Positions 3,409-14,225 of a stretch of DNA of 14,225 bases are shown here, one piece after another. The notes beneath the pieces were generated by a model. The model was not told the DNA's origin. It ran no database searches and worked only from the letters and a program-made list of their open reading frames with translations. The position numbers were made by a program, and so were the translations under genes. Source of the stretch: a virus (Duplodnaviria; Heunggongvirae; Uroviricota; Caudoviricetes); the IMG/VR virus record IMGVR_UViG_2778261499_000007; one strand, given 5' to 3'. The stretch's first letter is position 1. Every line of letters starts with the position of its first letter.

Positions 3409-3428
3409 TACTGTATATTATATCAGTA
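3409..3428. promoter_or_regulatory. LexA/SOS-box-like site (taCTGTatattataTCAGta)
   Basis: CTGT-N8-TCAG with an AT-only spacer; matches the E. coli SOS-box consensus CTGT-(AT)4-ACAG except the first base of the right half-site. Confidence 0.35.
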
Positions 3429-3775
3429 TTTACTCACATTGTCAACACCTTGATTATATAAATTCTAATAATTAGCGTAGTAACGGTATTTTCAGACCTC
3501 TATCAATCCCATCAATACGTCACCCCCACCCTTTAGATGCATACATCCGACCTACTTTGTAGGCTTGGCGTACTGCCAAGGTCGCAGCTATGCGACTCCT
3601 ATCTATCACCACTTTATAAAGCTTGATAGATATCTTTTGATCAATATCAATGTTTTCCGGGTATTTACCCGGCTATAGTTCGAATCAAGGAAGGGGAGCA
3701 TTGATAGAGACACCCAAAGGGGTGACTGAAAGTCACCTGGCATAGCCAGTGAAAGCACCCAACCGAACAAACAAA

Positions 3776-3790
3776 TCAACTTCTCGCAAA
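3776..3790 (+). promoter_or_regulatory. Conserved 15-nt motif TCAACTTCTCGCAAA, copy 1, immediately upstream of the RBS of the 3802 peptide
   Basis: Identical 15-mer at 4367-4381 and a near-identical copy (TCAACCTCTCGCGAG) at 13473-13487. Copies 1 and 2 sit at the same distance from an SD and ATG. Confidence 0.5.
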
Positions 3791-3801
3791 AGGTGATAGT
3801 T

Positions 3802-3924
3802 ATGGGTATCAAGAACAGTGCCAGCGCATGGCAAAAGGCCAGGTTTCATCACCCACACATTGTTAAGGCAATTGAGGTGGTTGGAGTTTTAGCCCTGATG
3901 TTAGCTCTGTGTGTGGAGGTGTGA
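3802..3924 (+). CDS. Small peptide, 40 aa, with hydrophobic C-terminal segment (MGIKNSASAWQKARFHHPHIVKAIEVVGVLALMLALCVEV)
   Basis: Below the ORF-track size cutoff; translated by hand. AGGTGA RBS with 5-nt spacing; predicted C-terminal transmembrane segment. Confidence 0.3.
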   Translation: MGIKNSASAWQKARFHHPHIVKAIEVVGVLALMLALCVEV

Positions 3925-3925
3925 G

Positions 3926-4006
3926 ATGGGCAAAGGAGGCAAAGCATTTTTAATAGGTCTGGCTATCCTGGATGTTCTACTAATCATGATTAAGCGGAGT
4001 TTATGA
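3926..4006 (+). CDS. Small hydrophobic peptide, 26 aa (MGKGGKAFLIGLAILDVLLIMIKRSL)
   Basis: Translated by hand. GGAGG at 3915-3919 with 6-nt spacing; ATG begins 1 nt after the preceding TGA; single predicted transmembrane helix. Confidence 0.25.
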   Translation: MGKGGKAFLIGLAILDVLLIMIKRSL

Positions 4007-4025
4007 ACAGCATTGAGAGGAGTTT

Positions 4026-4286
4026 ATGACGGGGGCTAAAGATATCAGGAGACTGAGGGAAGAGCTGATAGCTGAAATTAAAGCTAAGGCAAAGCAAATG
4101 GAGATAGCCGCACAAATGGATGTAGCGGAACAGATGTACAAGATGGTTGAGGAGGGAACGCCACGACAGGTTATCGCTAAAACCTTCGGTGTGGGGATCG
4201 CCACCGTGCACAGAAGGCTGAAAGCCTATGCCGACTACCACAATATCGAGAGAAAGGAGGATGGGAGATTTAAGAAGAATAAATAG
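4026..4286 (+). CDS. Small HTH DNA-binding protein (coiled-coil N-terminus, C-terminal HTH GTPRQVIAKTFGVGIATVHRRLK), 86 aa
   Basis: ORF track; GAGGAG RBS; clear helix-turn-helix pattern; the overlapping minus-strand ORFs are low-complexity shadows. Confidence 0.55.
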   Translation: MTGAKDIRRLREELIAEIKAKAKQMEIAAQMDVAEQMYKMVEEGTPRQVIAKTFGVGIATVHRRLKAYADYHNIERKEDGRFKKNK

Positions 4287-4296
4287 TAGGAACAGG

Positions 4297-4336
4297 CCCG
4301 AAGGGCTTAGCTTTAGCTAAGGTCCTATCAGGACTC
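4297..4336. repeat. Right arm of the 40-bp inverted repeat (partner 1437-1476); hairpin-forming
   Basis: CCCGAAGGGCTTAGCTTTAGCTAAGGTCCT... is the reverse complement of 1437-1476 with about 4 mismatches; lies between the HTH gene stop and the next gene. Confidence 0.7.
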
Positions 4337-4366
4337 CCACACAGTCCAACAGGTTATTAACTAAAT

Positions 4367-4381
4367 TCAACTTCTCGCAAA
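4367..4381 (+). promoter_or_regulatory. Conserved 15-nt motif TCAACTTCTCGCAAA, copy 2, immediately upstream of the RBS of the 4393 gene
   Basis: Exact repeat of 3776-3790, at the same spacing to SD and ATG. Confidence 0.5.
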
Positions 4382-4392
4382 GGGGTACCACT

Positions 4393-5103
4393 ATGTTTAA
4401 AGGTCTTGTTGTTACGCTATTGGCTTGCATTGTATTTGGTCCATGGGTGTTAGTAATTGCTTTACCTATATTGCTGATCATGAGCTTAGGGAATGATATT
4501 AAAAAGCTGCATGCACAATATAAGGAGCATCCTGGAGCAGTCATAACAAGTCTGGTTATAGTCGCGGGGCTTATTGGCTGGGTCTACTTCTCTCTTCCCA
4601 CAGGAAATACAACTGCAAATGTAGAAGAGGCGAACGCACAGCATGAAGAAGTGGTTAACGTCGCCGACCTTACATGGGAGGACAGGGTAAAAGCATATAA
4701 ATATATTTATGGTGTGCTAGATTGCGATCTCTCTAAAGATATAGGATGCACAGATAAATACCAGATTCACGCCTGGCTGTGGAATCATGCAGAAAAAGGT
4801 GCTTGCAACCAGATTAAAGTGGCGGTTAACAGTGGGGCACCTACTGGGAAAAATAAAGATGTTCTGACGGTATGGTGCAAGGATGTAAAAGGCAATGATC
4901 GTTGGCTACAGATGCGCCACATGGACGGTGTAAGCATAGAAACTACACGAACGGCTCGATGGTATAACGGTGAACTCGTTCACGAAGCATGGCAGAATAA
5001 CGCCTGGATCACTGAGGGAACACTCCTGAATGTTGATATGGAAGCATTGAAGATGCTTAATGAGATGTACGGTGAAGCCGTAGAAACCTCTCCGATGAAA
5101 TAA
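4393..5103 (+). CDS. Membrane protein, 236 aa: N-terminal transmembrane helices and a Cys-containing C-terminal domain; function unknown
   Basis: ORF track; two long hydrophobic segments in the first 70 aa; several Cys in the C-terminal domain; followed by a strong terminator. Confidence 0.55.
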   Translation: MFKGLVVTLLACIVFGPWVLVIALPILLIMSLGNDIKKLHAQYKEHPGAVITSLVIVAGLIGWVYFSLPTGNTTANVEEANAQHEEVVNVADLTWEDRVKAYKYIYGVLDCDLSKDIGCTDKYQIHAWLWNHAEKGACNQIKVAVNSGAPTGKNKDVLTVWCKDVKGNDRWLQMRHMDGVSIETTRTARWYNGELVHEAWQNNAWITEGTLLNVDMEALKMLNEMYGEAVETSPMK

Positions 5104-5113
5104 CCACACCTAC

Positions 5114-5143
5114 CAGGGGCCATCACGGCCCCTTTTTATTTAT
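5114..5143 (+). terminator. Rho-independent terminator (AGGGGCC-atcac-GGCCCCT followed by TTTTATTTAT)
   Basis: Perfect 7-bp GC-rich stem, 5-nt loop and T-rich tail starting 11 nt after the stop of the 4393..5103 gene. Confidence 0.7.
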
Positions 5144-5200
5144 CCCCTATTTACACTCCTTTCAGTCCTGATCATCACTCCCTACCCCCTGATCAATTAA

Positions 5201-5250
5201 CCCCTATTTAAGGGGTATTTAATGGGTATTTAATGCCTATTTATTGATTT
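5201..5250. repeat. Phased tandem repeats of TATTTAA at about 11-bp period (4 to 5 copies), plus a second CCCCTATTTA copy at 5144-5153
   Basis: cccctatttaa / ggggtatttaat / gggtatttaat / gcctatttatt / gatttaat; periodicity of about one helical turn. Confidence 0.6.
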
Positions 5251-6486
5251 AATCCGTTTTATGCCACAACCGCCCGGTTGACAGAGTAAGAGAGAGGGTG
5301 TAACCCTTTTTCGTAATACTAATAAAATCAATAGCTTAGCTCAATTGGCCTTTTCTCTGTTTTTGTCAAATTTAACATACCCTAAAAAACTGCAAAATCT
5401 GGCTGCAAGATTATCTGCAGCTGGATTTCTTACACCTCAATTTGTGGTATCACCCTGACTAGTTTGTGCATAAAATGAACAGTTTTTAACATTTCCTCTT
5501 CACCTGGTAACCACACAAAAAGCTAAAAACGAGGCACAGATAATCTTAGAGGCCTGTTTTCTTGTTATCACTCTGGAAACGTCGTAGAAGTGATTTTGAT
5601 GAAAGATGACCTACCCTATTACACCCCCATTTTTTGTTATCACAATTGCATCCTGTGCGGTGTATGGCTGTGTGCTGAAAGCGGTCTTGGGTGTGGGTGT
5701 CAGAAATATCCATTAGCGGTATTAATACCCGTCAGATGTTCGTCTGAGGTGCCAGGCAGGCGCTCCCCCACCTCCCTTTTTTCTTCTAACAATTCTCAAA
5801 TATCACACCACTGCCGACCACGTTACTACTCTGTTAATTCTTAAGCTTTGCTGTATGTTGTGCACATTATTTATTCAGGTGCGTGTACGTAAATTCTGGG
5901 CCTCCTTATCATGATTTTTAAATCAGATTTTGTAGTTCGGTTTCTTAGTGTAGATAAGATCTATTATGTTAAATGCAATTTTCCCAACCCTTCAAATCAA
6001 TGACTTACATGTAAGCATGCACTAACACCCCACACAGCACATTAGACGTATAGATGGCTATATCCCACATTTTTGATTGTTTTGTAGTCATTCCCCTGAT
6101 CATTTAACCAGTATAGTTTGTTCTTTGCAGACCACAAAATCGGAATTTACATCTGATTAACATAATCTGTTAGCATGATCACTATTACCCACACAACAAT
6201 AACCCCATGCAAGACTCTTCAGGCAATTTATCGGCGTGTTGGTGTGAACAGTCTTTCATGTTCTTTATGTTTTCATTGTCCTGTGTGAGGGAAGGATGGA
6301 CTGCCCCAGGGGCCACACTTATGATGCCCGGTCAACATAGCTATTGATAAAATCAACGGGTGTTGATCTGCATATTTCCCACACATGAGAGGAAATCAGA
6401 GCAAAGAGAGAGGAGAGAGGTTTGCTAGTCAAAATAGGTCAATTGACGGCTAATACAGAGTAAAAAATCAGATGCAATCACTCCCC

Positions 6487-6669
6487 ACCTGTTGGGATTT
6501 CCCGCACCTGTATAAGAATACAGTCATACTTTCCCGTTATACGGTCATACACATGATGGAATAACCTGTTGGAATTTCCTACAGGTTTAACCATACACAG
6601 GAGCTAACCTGTTGGAATTTCCTACTACTACCTGTCGGTATTTCCCACAGGTACCTGTTGGAATTTCCC
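6487..6669. repeat. Iteron array (5 copies of ACCTGTTGGAATTTCCY at 6487, 6564, 6607, 6630, 6653), candidate replication origin
   Basis: Near-identical 17-mers; the last three are spaced 23 bp apart; ACCTGT/ACAGGT inverted half-sites; followed by an AT-rich tract (6670-6710) and, 1.3 kb downstream, Rep-like genes. Confidence 0.7.
6508..6523. promoter_or_regulatory. Canonical SOS-box pattern CTGT-N8-ACAG (CTGTATAAGAATACAG) inside the iteron region
   Basis: Exact CTGT and ACAG half-sites with an 8-nt A/T-rich spacer. May partly reflect the iteron ACCTGT/ACAGGT half-sites. Confidence 0.35.
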
Positions 6670-6797
6670 ACACTAATAGATAAAGAGAATAGATCAATAA
6701 AAAGAACTCCCCCTATAATCCCCCAACAAGGGGGGATGGGGAGGGATCAGAGAGTGGGGAAGGTTTTCTAAGGGAAAAGCTTAACCCACAAATGAAA

Positions 6798-6826
6798 GCC
6801 TAAAGAGCATTAGCGACTCTTTAGGC
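6798..6826. other. Perfect 10-bp stem hairpin (GCCTAAAGAG-N9-CTCTTTAGGC), part of a highly structured ORF-free stretch (about 6790-7100)
   Basis: Exact inverted repeat. Nearby are GGTGAC-N21-GTCACC (6840-6872), TTAAGCC-tct-GGCTTAA, GTCCGGA-N20-TCCGGAC and tandem 17-mers at 6826-6843 and 6873-6889. Confidence 0.5.
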
Positions 6827-7231
6827 AATCTGTGTGTGGGGTGACAATGTATTCCATACATGACACGTCACCCAATTGTGTGTGGGGTGCTTACAGCACT
6901 TAAGCCTCTGGCTTAACCCTTCGGGCCTCTGTGTGGGAAGCGTAGTGCGATAGCACGTAGCTTTATAATGTGGAGTCCGGATAAGAGACTTCTGTTTCCA
7001 ATCCGGACCGTTTAAGCGAGGGATTCCGCTCGCCCGTGTATGCACACACGTAATAGGACGCTCAGAAATCGATTTTAAGGCCCAAAACGGGGCCTACAGC
7101 AACCTAAACCATACTCCATAGTGCAATTGCATTGCCTGATGCTTAAATCGCGTTGTAGGGCATCTCATGAGGTTTGAGTTTAACACCCTCCAAAGTTTTA
7201 ACAAAAAGTGCTCTCCCTCCATTGTGGGCCA

Positions 7232-7261
7232 TTGACAATCTTATTGCATAAATGCTATAAG
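7232..7261 (+). promoter_or_regulatory. Sigma70-like promoter (TTGACA-N18-TATAAG)
   Basis: Consensus -35 hexamer with a 5-of-6 match -10 at 18-nt spacing. One of five (A/T)TTGACAAT-type repeats in 7230-7560. Confidence 0.4.
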
Positions 7262-7551
7262 TGATTCTGGTTTTGACACGGTAGGGGCCATTAATAATGT
7301 TTACCCCTTTGCTGTGGACTTGCTTGCACCTATAGCACACCTAAATGATAATAATTCTCATTGACAATTGGTTGACAATATGATAAGATTATAAATAGGG
7401 GGAGAAACAGATCCGGAGGTCAATGTGGAAATTACTGATGCAATAGCGATCATCAACCTGGCTGTACTGTGGTGCGGTGTTGCCTACATAGCCGGAGTAA
7501 CTGCAATCGACAATCTCGAAGAAAAAATGATAGATAAATACAAAAAGATTG

Positions 7552-7580
7552 TTGACAATTTGACGAATGTCTGATAAAAT
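7552..7580 (+). promoter_or_regulatory. Sigma70-like promoter (TTGACA-N17-TAAAAT) about 125 nt upstream of the 7706 gene
   Basis: Consensus -35 and near-consensus -10 at optimal spacing, oriented toward the replication gene block. Confidence 0.45.
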
Positions 7581-7705
7581 ATAAAGCATAGGGTAATTCT
7601 CATCATAGTGAATTTCCTTAAACAAAAATGCGGGGGCTTGTCTTAAGTTCCCGTTTCTTTTTAACCGTATATCGCACAGGCGGTGAGCTGACAGGAGATT
7701 GAATC

Positions 7706-7915: not shown

Positions 7916-7939
7916 TAAATAATCTTGGAGGATCATATT

Positions 7940-8326
7940 ATGGCAAATAACGATGAAAATTTTACTCCCTTTTTTAAACGTTTCATCAAATACACTTTTA
8001 AAAATCCGATTGCAAAAACTGCAACCAATAAAGAAAGATTTCACTTAAATGTGTTGGAGGTAACAATTTATGGTGAAATGGTAAGTTATTCTTTTAAGGA
8101 GGGTGAAGAAATAATTATCTCAGAGCTCTCGACGCAGACATTAGCAGACGATTATGATGTTACAGAGAAAACAGTAAGGTCGGCTATCAAAACATTAGAG
8201 GCTGCAGGTCTGATAAACGTTAAACGAGAACAGGGCAAATCGAATATCTACGAATTGCTAATTACCCCTGATCAGCTTGGCAAGATGTGCGATGAGCAGG
8301 GTATTAGAGAATATTTTATATATTAA
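7940..8326 (+). CDS. Rep-like winged-helix protein, short paralog (about 128 aa); replication-initiator-type HTH
   Basis: Segment ISELSTQTLADDYDVTEKTVRSAIKTLEAAGLINVKREQGKSNIYELL fits the winged-helix pattern of phage/plasmid replication initiators. GGAGG RBS before the ATG at 7940 (track start 7925 is a TTG). Paralogous to the next gene. Confidence 0.5.
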   Translation: MANNDENFTPFFKRFIKYTFKNPIAKTATNKERFHLNVLEVTIYGEMVSYSFKEGEEIIISELSTQTLADDYDVTEKTVRSAIKTLEAAGLINVKREQGKSNIYELLITPDQLGKMCDEQGIREYFIY

Positions 8327-8337
8327 TGGGGGGAACT

Positions 8338-9258
8338 ATGGCAGGAAATAAACTGGGGGCACCTTTTACCCCCTCTTTCGATTTCTTTATTCAGTATGAT
8401 TTTGATAAACCAGTAGCAACAACAATTTCTAATAAAAAGACTGGAACAGTTAAAGAGCGCTTCTATTTAACAGACTTTGAAATGTTGATTTATGGAAAAA
8501 TGGTGGGATTTCATTTTAACGGTGAGGGAATTTATATTTCAGAGCAAAAACTGGCAACTCAACTCAGAAAGGATCGCGGGAAAATAGTAAGCGCTATTAA
8601 ATCTCTGGAAAATGCCGGGCTTATTTCTAAAGATAGCCGGAAAGGCATGTCTAATAATTACAAATTGCTGAAAACCCCTGATCAATTGTTGGATATGTGC
8701 ATTGAGAAGGGCGTAAATATTCCAGAAGGCATCTTAGAGACTTTCGGAAAGACTGCCGCTAAAGTAGAACAGCCTCAGGAAGCCCCAAAACAAGCCACAC
8801 AGCAAGCTAAAAAGGCTAAAGTAGTGCAATTGCCTACCCAAGACACTAAAGCGCCTCAAATTAACGCTGTTAGTGACAAGCCACGCCGGGGCCGTCCTGT
8901 GAAAGATGTCACCGATGGAGGCTGGATCGTCCTGGGTGAGAGTGAGGCTAAAGGCATAATGCGATCACTGTGGGAAAGCAAATACAAAGATTTAAACAAA
9001 CGTCGCCCGATCCTTTTGTCAAAGATTCAGGAGGATTTTTACACCGCAGAAGAGGTAAGCCAACATAAAGGGAAAAGAGAGGGTGAAATCTGGAAACCGG
9101 AAGAATACTGGCATTTAACCAGACCTGTGTTTATTTTTGCAAATAAGCTTATTGGGATGGGATTTGAAATATTGTTGGATAAAACCTGCGGAGATTATCC
9201 CGAAATATTGTGGAGAAATGTTAGAAAAAATAAAAAAGGCATTTTAGAGTTTAAATAA
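8338..9258 (+). CDS. Rep-like replication initiator, long paralog (about 306 aa) with a C-terminal extension
   Basis: N-terminal 120 aa parallels the preceding gene (MA.N...FTP.F...; ...SAIKSLENAGLISKDSRKGMSNNYKLL). The previous stop overlaps an upstream ATG at 8326 (TAATG); 8338 is preceded by a G-rich SD. Iterons lie upstream. Confidence 0.5.
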   Translation: MAGNKLGAPFTPSFDFFIQYDFDKPVATTISNKKTGTVKERFYLTDFEMLIYGKMVGFHFNGEGIYISEQKLATQLRKDRGKIVSAIKSLENAGLISKDSRKGMSNNYKLLKTPDQLLDMCIEKGVNIPEGILETFGKTAAKVEQPQEAPKQATQQAKKAKVVQLPTQDTKAPQINAVSDKPRRGRPVKDVTDGGWIVLGESEAKGIMRSLWESKYKDLNKRRPILLSKIQEDFYTAEEVSQHKGKREGEIWKPEEYWHLTRPVFIFANKLIGMGFEILLDKTCGDYPEILWRNVRKNKKGILEFK

Positions 9259-13293: not shown

Positions 13294-13395
13294 TGTCCAC
13301 TCTGTGGATTTGAGTTCTACTCAAACCTGCATAGCAGGCACTGATATTGTGATCAAAATCAATAAGTTAGCCTGACCGGACAAACTCCAGGCAAG

Positions 13396-13426
13396 AAAAA
13401 AGCCCCTAAGTGTTAACAAAGGGGCT
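13396..13426 (-). terminator. Rho-independent terminator for minus-strand transcription (AGCCCCT-N12-AGGGGCT followed by six T on the minus strand)
   Basis: Perfect 7-bp stem at 13401-13407 and 13420-13426; the A-run at 13396-13401 on the plus strand gives the U-tail on the minus strand. Confidence 0.55.
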
Positions 13427-13472
13427 CTTCTCCGGTATCCTTTTGATGCGGGGCAAAACCTGCTAACAAAAA

Positions 13473-13487
13473 TCAACCTCTCGCGAG
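13473..13487 (+). promoter_or_regulatory. Conserved motif copy 3 (TCAACCTCTCGCGAG), in the loop of an 11-bp inverted repeat (13458-13468 and 13493-13503)
   Basis: 13 of 15 identical to the motif at 3776 and 4367; not followed by a credible ORF, which argues for function at the DNA or RNA level. Confidence 0.4.
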
Positions 13488-13845
13488 ACTAATGTTAGCA
13501 GGTTGCCGGAAGGTAAGTCAACTCCGGTCTATAAACCTTAAAGCGACTATAAAATCGCCCCGCCAATTGTGATGATCCGACCTTTGAGGCGGGTCCGGTG
13601 CCCAGGGGGTGCAGTGATGCACAAACCAGGCAACGATAAACAGGCTAACAGTGATAGCGGCGCTCAATCAGCGCACTAAATCCTAACCAGTCCGGGAAAG
13701 AGGCTGGCTCTATCGACCGCTCATGCACGGGACAATGCATACCTGATAAAGGATTCTCACAAGGGACCAATCGCGAGAAAGAAGTGGAAAGGGGCTGATT
13801 TGTGGTGTATCACTACGGCCTCAAAAGACATCCTATTGTCTTTTT

Positions 13846-14225
13846 TCAGCCTCTACCTACATTTGACCAATACTTGATTGCACCGATCAAATCATCATAG
13901 TGGCGCATTGCATCATTGAAGCCTTTATAGCTTGCCCATTGTGGTGAAACCTTGTTATTGCTGAATTGCCCACTAATCAGGATAGTCTCCAAAATGTCGG
14001 CATATCGCTTACCAATACGCTTTCTGACGGCCTCAGAGCTCCCACCCTTTACGATTGCATTAATCAGGGCTTTTGTGTGTCTCAGGCTCTCATAGAGCAT
14101 TGCAGCGTGGGCAGATTCCATAAAGGAGCGCTTAGGCAGATCACCCCACCCCTCAGAGTGGATAGCTGCCAGTGTGGCGTAATTCAGGCCGCTATAGTGC
14201 TTTCCGTCATCCCAGCCAACCGCTA
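13846..14225 (-). CDS. Hypothetical protein, C-terminal part (...MESAHAAMLYESLRHTKALINAIVKGGSSEAVRKRIGKRYADILETILISGQFSNNKVSPQWASYKGFNDAMRHYDDLIGAIKYWSNVGRG); same gene as 1-156 if circular (about 152 aa total)
   Basis: The frame is open from the window end down to the TGA at 13846-13848; the upstream portion is supplied in frame by 156->1 through the 77-bp junction. Confidence 0.5.
   Translation of the reverse strand, partial: AVGWDDGKHYSGLNYATLAAIHSEGWGDLPKRSFMESAHAAMLYESLRHTKALINAIVKGGSSEAVRKRIGKRYADILETILISGQFSNNKVSPQWASYKGFNDAMRHYDDLIGAIKYWSNVGRG
14149..14225. repeat. Terminal direct repeat, right copy (identical to 1-77)
   Basis: Same 77-mer as the window start; consistent with a circular contig written with overlap, or a direct terminal repeat. 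Confidence 0.9.

Follow-up and report, generated by a model that had tools for sequence, protein, structure and literature searches.

A short conserved motif beside two ribosome-binding sites of an E. coli plasmid-like element, read as the candidate target of an antisense small RNA

What is the role of a 15-nt sequence that recurs three times in a 14-kb element, twice immediately in front of a gene and once where no gene follows? This question was raised by a sequence-only reading of a viral DNA stretch of 14,225 nt (hereafter the window, i.e. the whole stretch that was analysed). The 15-mer TCAACTTCTCGCAAA was found exactly at positions 3776-3790 (site 1) and 4367-4381 (site 2) of the plus strand, and a version with three mismatches, TCAACCTCTCGCGAG, at 13473-13487 of the same strand (site 3). 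That the identical copies sit at a fixed distance from a Shine-Dalgarno (SD) sequence and a start codon was confirmed, as each ends 11 nt before an ATG (3802 and 4393). Likewise, the third copy was found as described, in the loop of an inverted repeat (between 11-nt arms at 13458-13468 and 13493-13503) with no credible ORF downstream. The additional argument that such a recurrence is unlikely by chance fared less well at the level of the window, where statistics were weak: a repeated exact 15-mer arose in 26 of 300 dinucleotide shuffles, and 0.46 matches to the motif with up to three mismatches are expected per window. It was the comparison across relatives that showed the motif to be real. 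The window also contains a second repeated 15-mer (at 857 and 10942), which is probably meaningless.

The window corresponds to a closed circle of 14,148 bp, since its bases 1-77 are identical to 14149-14225 (77 nt being the assembly k-mer overlap), and it is a member of a family of 13.2-14.3 kb non-mobilizable E. coli "plasmids". Its genes code for a major capsid protein, a 111-aa head protein, a Dit-like tail tube initiator and a 700-aa tape measure, together with two Rep/HTH initiators accompanied by iterons; no terminase or portal match was obtained among the ten largest ORFs. Capsid and tape measure are both about 25% identical to their counterparts in rV5-like myophages (Vequintavirus), the tail tube initiator reaches 51% identity, and local gene order mirrors that of these phages. 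From these similarities, the element is probably an undescribed extrachromosomal satellite of virulent myophages of the Vequintavirus type (rV5-like). A literature search retrieved no description of the family and none of a satellite of rV5-like phages. The element occurred in 7 of 5426 complete E. coli genomes, and its exact HTH protein was indexed in 655 assembly blocks of E. coli assemblies. The comparison set consisted of about 35 related 13-14 kb E. coli plasmid-like elements (relatives L108-L116, L121-L139 and L144-L147). Four lineages with diverged non-coding DNA were distinguished, namely L131, L133/L134, L138 and L117/L144-147, the capsid of the last being 82% identical to that of the window. 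No wider relatives appeared below 82% identity in capsid searches or below 86% in HTH searches, and scans of IMG/VR, GTDB and JGI metagenomes recovered no further lineages.

Some structural peculiarities of these elements are recorded here. Relative L110 (NZ_CP043822.1, 39.6 kb) is a head-to-tail trimer with one partly rearranged copy, and in L124 the element lies inside a 79-kb contig that could be a cointegrate or a misassembly. The two Rep/HTH initiator-like genes (7925-8326 and 8326-9258) are adjacent and paralogous, with a 68-nt segment that is 71% identical between 8234-8301 and 8644-8711; some relatives have only one of them. A 2.3-kb region (5104-7424) has no convincing ORF in any relative, carries five iterons of 21-23 nt (6485-6671), and shares the words CCCACACA and CTCTTCAGG and a 24-nt match (5781-5804) with a 2.5-kb ORF-free region (90051-92584) of the Vequintavirus phage MaxTheCat; it may be an origin or a helper-recognition region. 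Neither this region nor 13385-13845 displayed phage DNA similarity beyond short words. A perfect LexA-box-like palindrome (TACTG-N10-CAGTA, 3409-3428) overlaps the -10 of a strong minus-strand promoter (3445-3417), and an imperfect LexA-like box (CTG-N10-AAG, 7571-7586) overlaps a strong plus-strand promoter (7552-7580); both promoters share a 42-nt inverted repeat. SOS control of the element through these boxes is uncertain, because the first box is degraded in relatives of the L109/L112 type and absent in L144.

All three sites were invariant in nine complete relatives and in ten further contigs. A search for the motif across related elements had been suggested with the original observation, and it gave a clear answer: an 11-12 nt core, (T)CAACYTCTCGC, was retained at three plus-strand sites per element in all four lineages, despite differing flanks. 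On this comparison, the functional unit is the core and not the 15-mer, because site 2 of L133 has lost the trailing AAA (its core runs directly into AGGAG) and site 3 of L133 and L138 lacks both the inverted repeat and a palindrome described below. By the same alignments, site 3 is a true third copy of the core, since an exact 11-mer in an unrelated context is expected about 0.01 times per element by chance. The suspicion that the copies belong to a larger duplicated segment was also addressed, and a larger duplication was rejected as their source: sites 1 and 2 resemble each other over about 21 nt only. Chance, or hitch-hiking in the form of a functionless sequence left behind by the duplication of a ribosome-binding cassette, would agree with the weak window-only statistics. 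Yet, the core was kept at three sites while neighbouring non-coding DNA is about 55-60% alike or unalignable, and no fewer than six unrelated cargo genes are preceded by it, so that this explanation is given almost no credence. As far as comparison goes, the motif is real, conserved and functional-looking.

Sites 1 and 2 displayed similar surroundings. Read as a target, site 1 (AAATCAACTTCTCGC, 3773-3787, plus strand) occupies positions -29 to -15 of the 5' leader relative to ATG 3802, directly abuts the SD AAGGTGAT and was invariant in all relatives compared. It heads a small plus-strand operon whose first gene (3802-3924) codes for a 40-aa peptide with a hydrophobic C-terminal segment, followed by a 26-aa hydrophobic peptide (3926-4006) and by an 86-aa HTH_7 protein (4026-4286), the latter thus encoded between sites 1 and 2. 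Neither peptide had a Pfam match, and the 40-aa product could be assigned to no known toxin family. At site 2, the core TCAACTTCTCGC (4367-4378, plus strand) lies at -26 to -15 from ATG 4393, with the SD AAGGGG downstream; imperfect extra complementarity to the small RNA predicted below reaches back to 4356, giving a target of 4356-4378. The gene behind site 2 (4393-5103, 236 aa in the window) is a variable cargo gene. In relatives, unrelated genes of 173, 176, 179, 195, 225 or 228 aa take its place, again preceded by the motif. At least six unrelated products were counted in this slot, most of them with predicted membrane or signal segments, and Pfam and PADLOC returned no match for the cargo products.

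Three further observations concern the neighbourhood of these sites. In L121, an 11-nt tandem duplication (CGCAAAGGGGT, 2829-2865 of that relative) between the core and the cargo ATG doubles the SD and adds 11 nt to the distance between core and start codon. Just upstream of site 1, a 52-nt stretch with three small hairpins (3704-3755) is 88% identical to a Vequintavirus non-coding segment (L119 40900-40951, i.e. MaxTheCat 90900-90951) and differs from it in one stem by a compensatory substitution (GGTGACT/AGTCACC versus GGTGACC/GGTCACC). Some members of the family carry this stretch, whereas others lack it cleanly. Finally, a 45-nt inverted repeat (1437-1481 and 4292-4336, 89% complementary, with three small palindromes) has one copy behind the capsid gene and the other behind the HTH gene, the latter copy being found only in elements with certain cargo types.

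The position of the motif next to two SDs calls to mind an RNA element acting in cis, either an anti-SD tract (CUUCUC/CCUCUC) that folds onto the SD or an RNase processing site, site 3 being an unrelated or decayed copy. The tract resembles the 16S anti-SD, a likeness that was counted in favour of this explanation, and hairpins pairing parts of the motif with downstream sequence were predicted at both sites: at site 1, part of the motif pairs with GGUGA and, at site 2, ACUUCU pairs with AGGGGU or AGGAGU. However, these local folds were weak (-3.4 to -9.8 kcal/mol) and no better than those of shuffled sequences (z from -1.0 to +0.8). Furthermore, an element of this kind leaves unexplained the strict conservation of CAAC and CGC, as well as the exact core at site 3 in the wholly different context of L133 and L138. 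We consider it quite improbable.

Several known signals were compared with the motif by eye. IHF (WATCAANNNNTTR), sigma-E, sigma-54 and boxA sites, T7-type promoters and the T7 epsilon enhancer displayed partial resemblance only, leaving the invariant CTTCTCGC unexplained, and were rejected.

A more specific proposal of the sequence-only reading was a promoter for a helper-encoded polymerase or activator. In its fuller form, the three plus-strand copies would be compact promoter or activator sites for helper-modified or helper-encoded transcription machinery, by which the peptide/HTH operon and the cargo gene would be activated and a non-coding RNA transcribed from site 3. In favour of this, the three copies point in the same direction, every block that looks like a transcription unit has the motif in front of it, and a consensus scan (-35/-10, 16-18 nt spacing) found no plus-strand sigma-70 promoter between 3447 and 4393, hence none directly upstream of ATG 3802 or ATG 4393. 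The layout (A/T-rich, conserved core, then purines), which loosely resembles the promoters of single-subunit RNA polymerases, was counted on the same side. The scan equally speaks against the motif being itself a sigma-70 promoter, with which it has no resemblance. Yet, no enrichment of the motif was met where helpers might be expected to carry it. MaxTheCat (135 kb, complete, and the one candidate helper scanned) was searched on both strands with the 15-mer, its 11-nt core and a degenerate pattern of 18 nt, and the matches stayed at chance level throughout. There were four matches with up to three mismatches, while the core had five one-mismatch matches against about 4.4 expected; all of these matches lie inside genes. 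Similarly, the exact 15-mer had 106 single matches in IMG/VR, with no contig carrying two among the 80 stretches listed, and a 20-nt pattern of site 1 had four matches among GTDB species representatives, in unrelated MAGs and as chance predicts. The published late motif of rV5, TggTAaAAtA (PMC3606486), is unrelated to the 15-mer. The annotation of the candidate helper includes no RNA polymerase gene, and the element encodes none. A start at the motif would also leave leaders of only 11-14 nt. Downstream of site 3 on the plus strand, the only block conserved between lineages reads as a minus-strand -35, and, in L133 and L138, the terminator immediately next to site 3 has the orientation of a minus-strand transcript. 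A helper-type promoter is thus unsupported by these searches and appears unlikely.

The last two points lead to the opposite strand of site 3. In the window, the inverted repeat around it (13458-13503) has 11-bp arms, ACCTGCTAACA (13458-13468) and TGTTAGCAGGT (13493-13503), and as RNA it folds with -22.6 kcal/mol (z -3.6). This repeat is found in the main and L144 lineages only; L133 and L138 have neither the repeat nor the perfect palindrome TCTCGCGAGA that site 3 contains in the main lineage. No credible plus-strand ORF exists at site 3 in the window and none is conserved in the L133 lineage; the plus strand is also poorly terminated there. On the minus strand, site 3 reads GCGAGAGGTTGATTTTT. 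In that direction, a sigma-70 promoter-like site was recognized at 13492-13521, composed of TTGACT (13521-13516), an 18-nt spacer and a TG-extended TAACAT (13497-13492). With the usual 7-nt discriminator, the consensus scan puts the predicted +1 at about G13484, and it is exactly at G13484 that the similarity of site 3 to sites 1 and 2 stops. A GC-rich terminator hairpin (stem 13426-13401, minus strand) is followed by T6, i.e. a U-run in the RNA. The predicted transcript is a small RNA of about 90 nt (13395-13484, minus strand) whose 5' end, GCGAGAGGUUGAUUU, corresponds to site 3 read in reverse complement (13470-13484). Its predicted fold has -29.8 kcal/mol (z -2.7), and in the main lineage this fold partly pairs the 5' sequence, hereafter the seed, in a weak G-U-rich hairpin. 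No other copy of the seed was found elsewhere in the element.

The same arrangement was recovered in the diverged lineages. In L133/L134 and L138, a block GTTGACT-N17-CACACT-N6-GCGAGAAGTTGAG is conserved while the sequence on both sides differs; the -35 TTGACT is kept at equivalent spacing, the -10 (CACACT) is weak, and the seed directly abuts a hairpin and T-run, the hairpin having a different sequence in each. An equivalent but shorter RNA unit of about 55 nt would result. Every lineage thus displayed a minus-strand unit made of a promoter-like site, the seed and a terminator. A hairpin with its T-run on the minus strand was found in all three site-3 contexts (window, L133 and L138), with three different hairpin sequences, so that a minus-strand transcript would carry the antisense sequence just before its 3' end. 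The unit adjoins the end of the minus-strand capsid/tail operon, and read-through or processing could therefore also yield the RNA. Rfam searches of the region gave weak matches only, all of them terminator-like and on the minus strand; for the whole window, no family was matched at the gathering threshold. Since the block 13396-13845 is about 98% identical between the window and L144, these two are not independent witnesses for site 3. The contention that the third copy is the same kind of plus-strand site as the two others fits less well than reading it on the minus strand, as the seed of a small RNA.

Two side observations were made in this region. Block 13396-13845, located between the gene of a 152-aa tail protein and the terminator, is ORF-free and rich in small hairpins. 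Besides the predicted small RNA, it may contain a site for packaging or a longer RNA that is structured. In the main lineage, a degenerate second copy of the core (plus strand GGGGCTCTTCTCCGG, minus strand CCGGAGAAGAGCCCC) lies beside the terminator, at 13420-13434. Because it occupies the position of the intact seed in L133 and L138, its location suggests that the main-lineage seed arose via duplication and displacement.

These data also bear on a third explanation, in which the motif would bind a protein, as a DNA operator of the 86-aa HTH_7 protein or as an RNA operator of a translational repressor, with the three sites being co-regulated. Autoregulation is plausible given that the HTH gene belongs to the operon headed by site 1, the palindrome of main-lineage site 3 is framed by an inverted repeat, and the motif abuts ribosome-binding sites in the manner of translational operators. 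Yet, the conserved core is asymmetric, sites 1 and 2 lack a second half-site, palindrome and inverted repeat are missing in L133 and L138 where only the 12-nt core survives, and neither site 1 nor site 2 is overlapped by a promoter on which a DNA operator could act. Binding of a protein accounts neither for the end of similarity at the predicted minus-strand +1 nor for the target variation described below, which is restricted to C/U opposite a G of the small RNA. We regard a protein-binding site as improbable. The translational operator suggested by the sequence-only reading nevertheless came near the best explanation, insofar as the exact copies do abut ribosome-binding sites.

The predicted 5' end of the small RNA was then compared with the two leaders. 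Against site 1 (AAAUCAACUUCUCGC), it forms 15 contiguous pairs including one G-U and, against site 2 (UCAACUUCUCGC), 12 pairs that can be extended to 22 nt with two mismatches. A 16-nt seed gave -23.6 kcal/mol with site 1 and -20.9 kcal/mol with site 2, the extended duplex at site 2 reaching -25.1 kcal/mol. By comparison, the same seed gave -4 to -11.5 kcal/mol with the other 17 translation-initiation regions and a mean of -8.8 kcal/mol (sd 2.65) with all 50-nt windows genome-wide. This short seed was used since 40 nt of the small RNA against 65-nt windows gave no discrimination, due to G-U-rich pairing; counting the longest runs with G-U allowed was noisy as well. In all lineages, 13-26 nt of the 5' part of the RNA gave -21.2 to -26.5 kcal/mol with both targets. 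Where at least 7 complementary nucleotides within the ribosome-binding region define a seed, 12-15 contiguous pairs were found here, in front of two genes. The predicted duplexes end at -15, i.e. directly 5' of the SD and not over it.

Sequence variation at the single degenerate position (Y) of the core is in line with pairing. In the main and L144 lineages, the small RNA has a G, faced by U (both sites of the main lineage and site 1 of L144) or C (site 2 of L144). An additional C-to-U change at site 2 of L145 likewise lies opposite a G. In L133 and L138, the small RNA has an A and both targets a U. For site 3 of the L117 lineage, a C was predicted before the sequences were fetched, and a C was found. 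A pairing mismatch was encountered in none of the elements, all target variation being C/U opposite a G of the small RNA. The family is shallow (four lineages, few informative substitutions), and this pattern, which is the one expected for RNA-RNA pairing, comprises few events and no double compensatory change; it supports such pairing with moderate strength. Moreover, to say that the RNA is complementary to its targets amounts to saying that site 3 directly repeats the two other sites. Therefore, core conservation and energetics alone do not separate a small RNA from a same-strand cis element. The discriminating evidence is the promoter/terminator geometry of the minus strand, the similarity boundary at +1, the lack of a plus-strand product and the wobble-compatible variation.

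Taken together, we propose that the motif consists of two targets adjacent to ribosome-binding sites and, on the opposite strand, of the 5' seed of a trans-acting antisense small RNA, a reading to which we assign a probability of roughly 55%. Sites 1 and 2 would be target sequences in two plus-strand mRNAs, immediately 5' of their SDs, and the minus strand of site 3 would provide the first 12-15 nt of a small RNA of about 90 nt (about 55 nt in L133 and L138). This RNA would stem from a dedicated sigma-70-type promoter or from processing of the capsid/tail operon's 3' UTR, and would end at the Rho-independent terminator. Its seed, GCGAGARGUUGA(UUU), would pair with (AAA)UCAACYUCUCGC at -29/-26 to -15 of both mRNAs. 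Binding of the 30S subunit would then be blocked and translation most likely repressed, because the pairing lies inside the ribosome-binding region. The products affected would be the 40-aa membrane peptide, the second peptide and the HTH protein on the one hand, and whatever cargo fills the variable slot on the other. Activation through the opening of the weak anti-SD hairpins is possible but less likely, as these hairpins are of low stability. From the sequences, their positions and conservation, the complementarity and the promoter and terminator signals, we infer that the minus-strand RNA is produced, that it pairs in vivo and that it represses rather than activates.

Comparison with known systems helps to place this arrangement. 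In the satellite P4, the CI RNA carries one recognition sequence complementary to two targets, seqA and seqC, and keeps a set of genes silent (PMC4825925). The system predicted here likewise involves a satellite RNA with one seed and two separate targets on the element's own transcripts. P4 CI is, however, processed from the transcript of its targets and causes premature transcription termination, whereas the present RNA would be transcribed several kb from its targets and on the other strand, and these targets abut ribosome-binding sites. Searches with C4-type Rfam models found no match either in 13300-13900 (E≤10) or in 3430-4400 (E≤5), so that the predicted RNA differs from P4 CI and P1 c4 in lacking a C4 covariance-model match.

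In the immI regions of P1 and P7, the c4 antisense RNA acts on the icd/ant leader, where it blocks translation of a small leader ORF and thereby of the downstream genes. The proposed RNA would similarly be a repressor of plasmid-prophage type that pairs at or near a ribosome-binding site. Yet, c4 arises from the transcript that also carries its target and is matured by RNase P, and the predicted RNA displayed no sequence or Rfam similarity to c4.

Enterobacterial trans-acting small RNAs of the Hfq type with a 5'-terminal seed (RybB, OmrA/B and MicC) and those derived from 3' UTRs (CpxQ and MicL) form another reference group. The predicted RNA shares with them its short length, a 5'-terminal seed, a Rho-independent terminator with U tail, a location at the 3' end of an operon and multiple targets near ribosome-binding sites, here of membrane or exported proteins. 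It differs in being encoded on, and targeting, a mobile element, and in a predicted pairing that lies just upstream of the SD and covers neither the SD nor the AUG.

Type I toxin-antitoxin systems, whose toxins are hydrophobic peptides of fewer than 60 aa, and whose antitoxin RNA may be encoded separately (tisB/istR-1, shoB/ohsC, zor/orz) or which may be located on plasmids (hok/sok), are also similar in that the gene of a 40-aa hydrophobic peptide has a leader complementary to the predicted small RNA. As with these systems, a plasmid-like carrier would benefit from post-segregational killing or phage exclusion. Unlike them, the RNA unit (13395-13521) is not adjacent to the putative toxin gene, its distance from 3802 being 9.7 kb, or 4.4 kb when measured across the circle's origin; there is, unusually, a second, unrelated and swappable target gene, and the putative toxin matches no toxin family. 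The system is best filed as a mobile-element-encoded antisense small RNA with seed-tagged targets, in an apparently undescribed element family.

Speculatively, the motif might be part of a satellite switch, an extension of the proposal that we hold as doubtful. In the carrier state, a short-lived small RNA would silence translation of the membrane-peptide/HTH operon and of the cargo slot until helper infection or SOS shuts it off or out-titrates it. The released products would then serve abortive infection, exclusion or lysis, and the 12-nt tag would pass this control on to any gene that enters the slot by recombination.

If the antisense reading is true, the motif would be an address tag for a small RNA: any gene with these 12 nt ahead of its ribosome-binding site would come under the control of the satellite RNA, and this tag has been kept before at least six unrelated cargo genes. 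The family of elements, uncharacterised although widespread among E. coli assemblies, would thus have a simple regulatory circuit, and the RNA-based control known from P4 and P1 would be extended to a new type of satellite.
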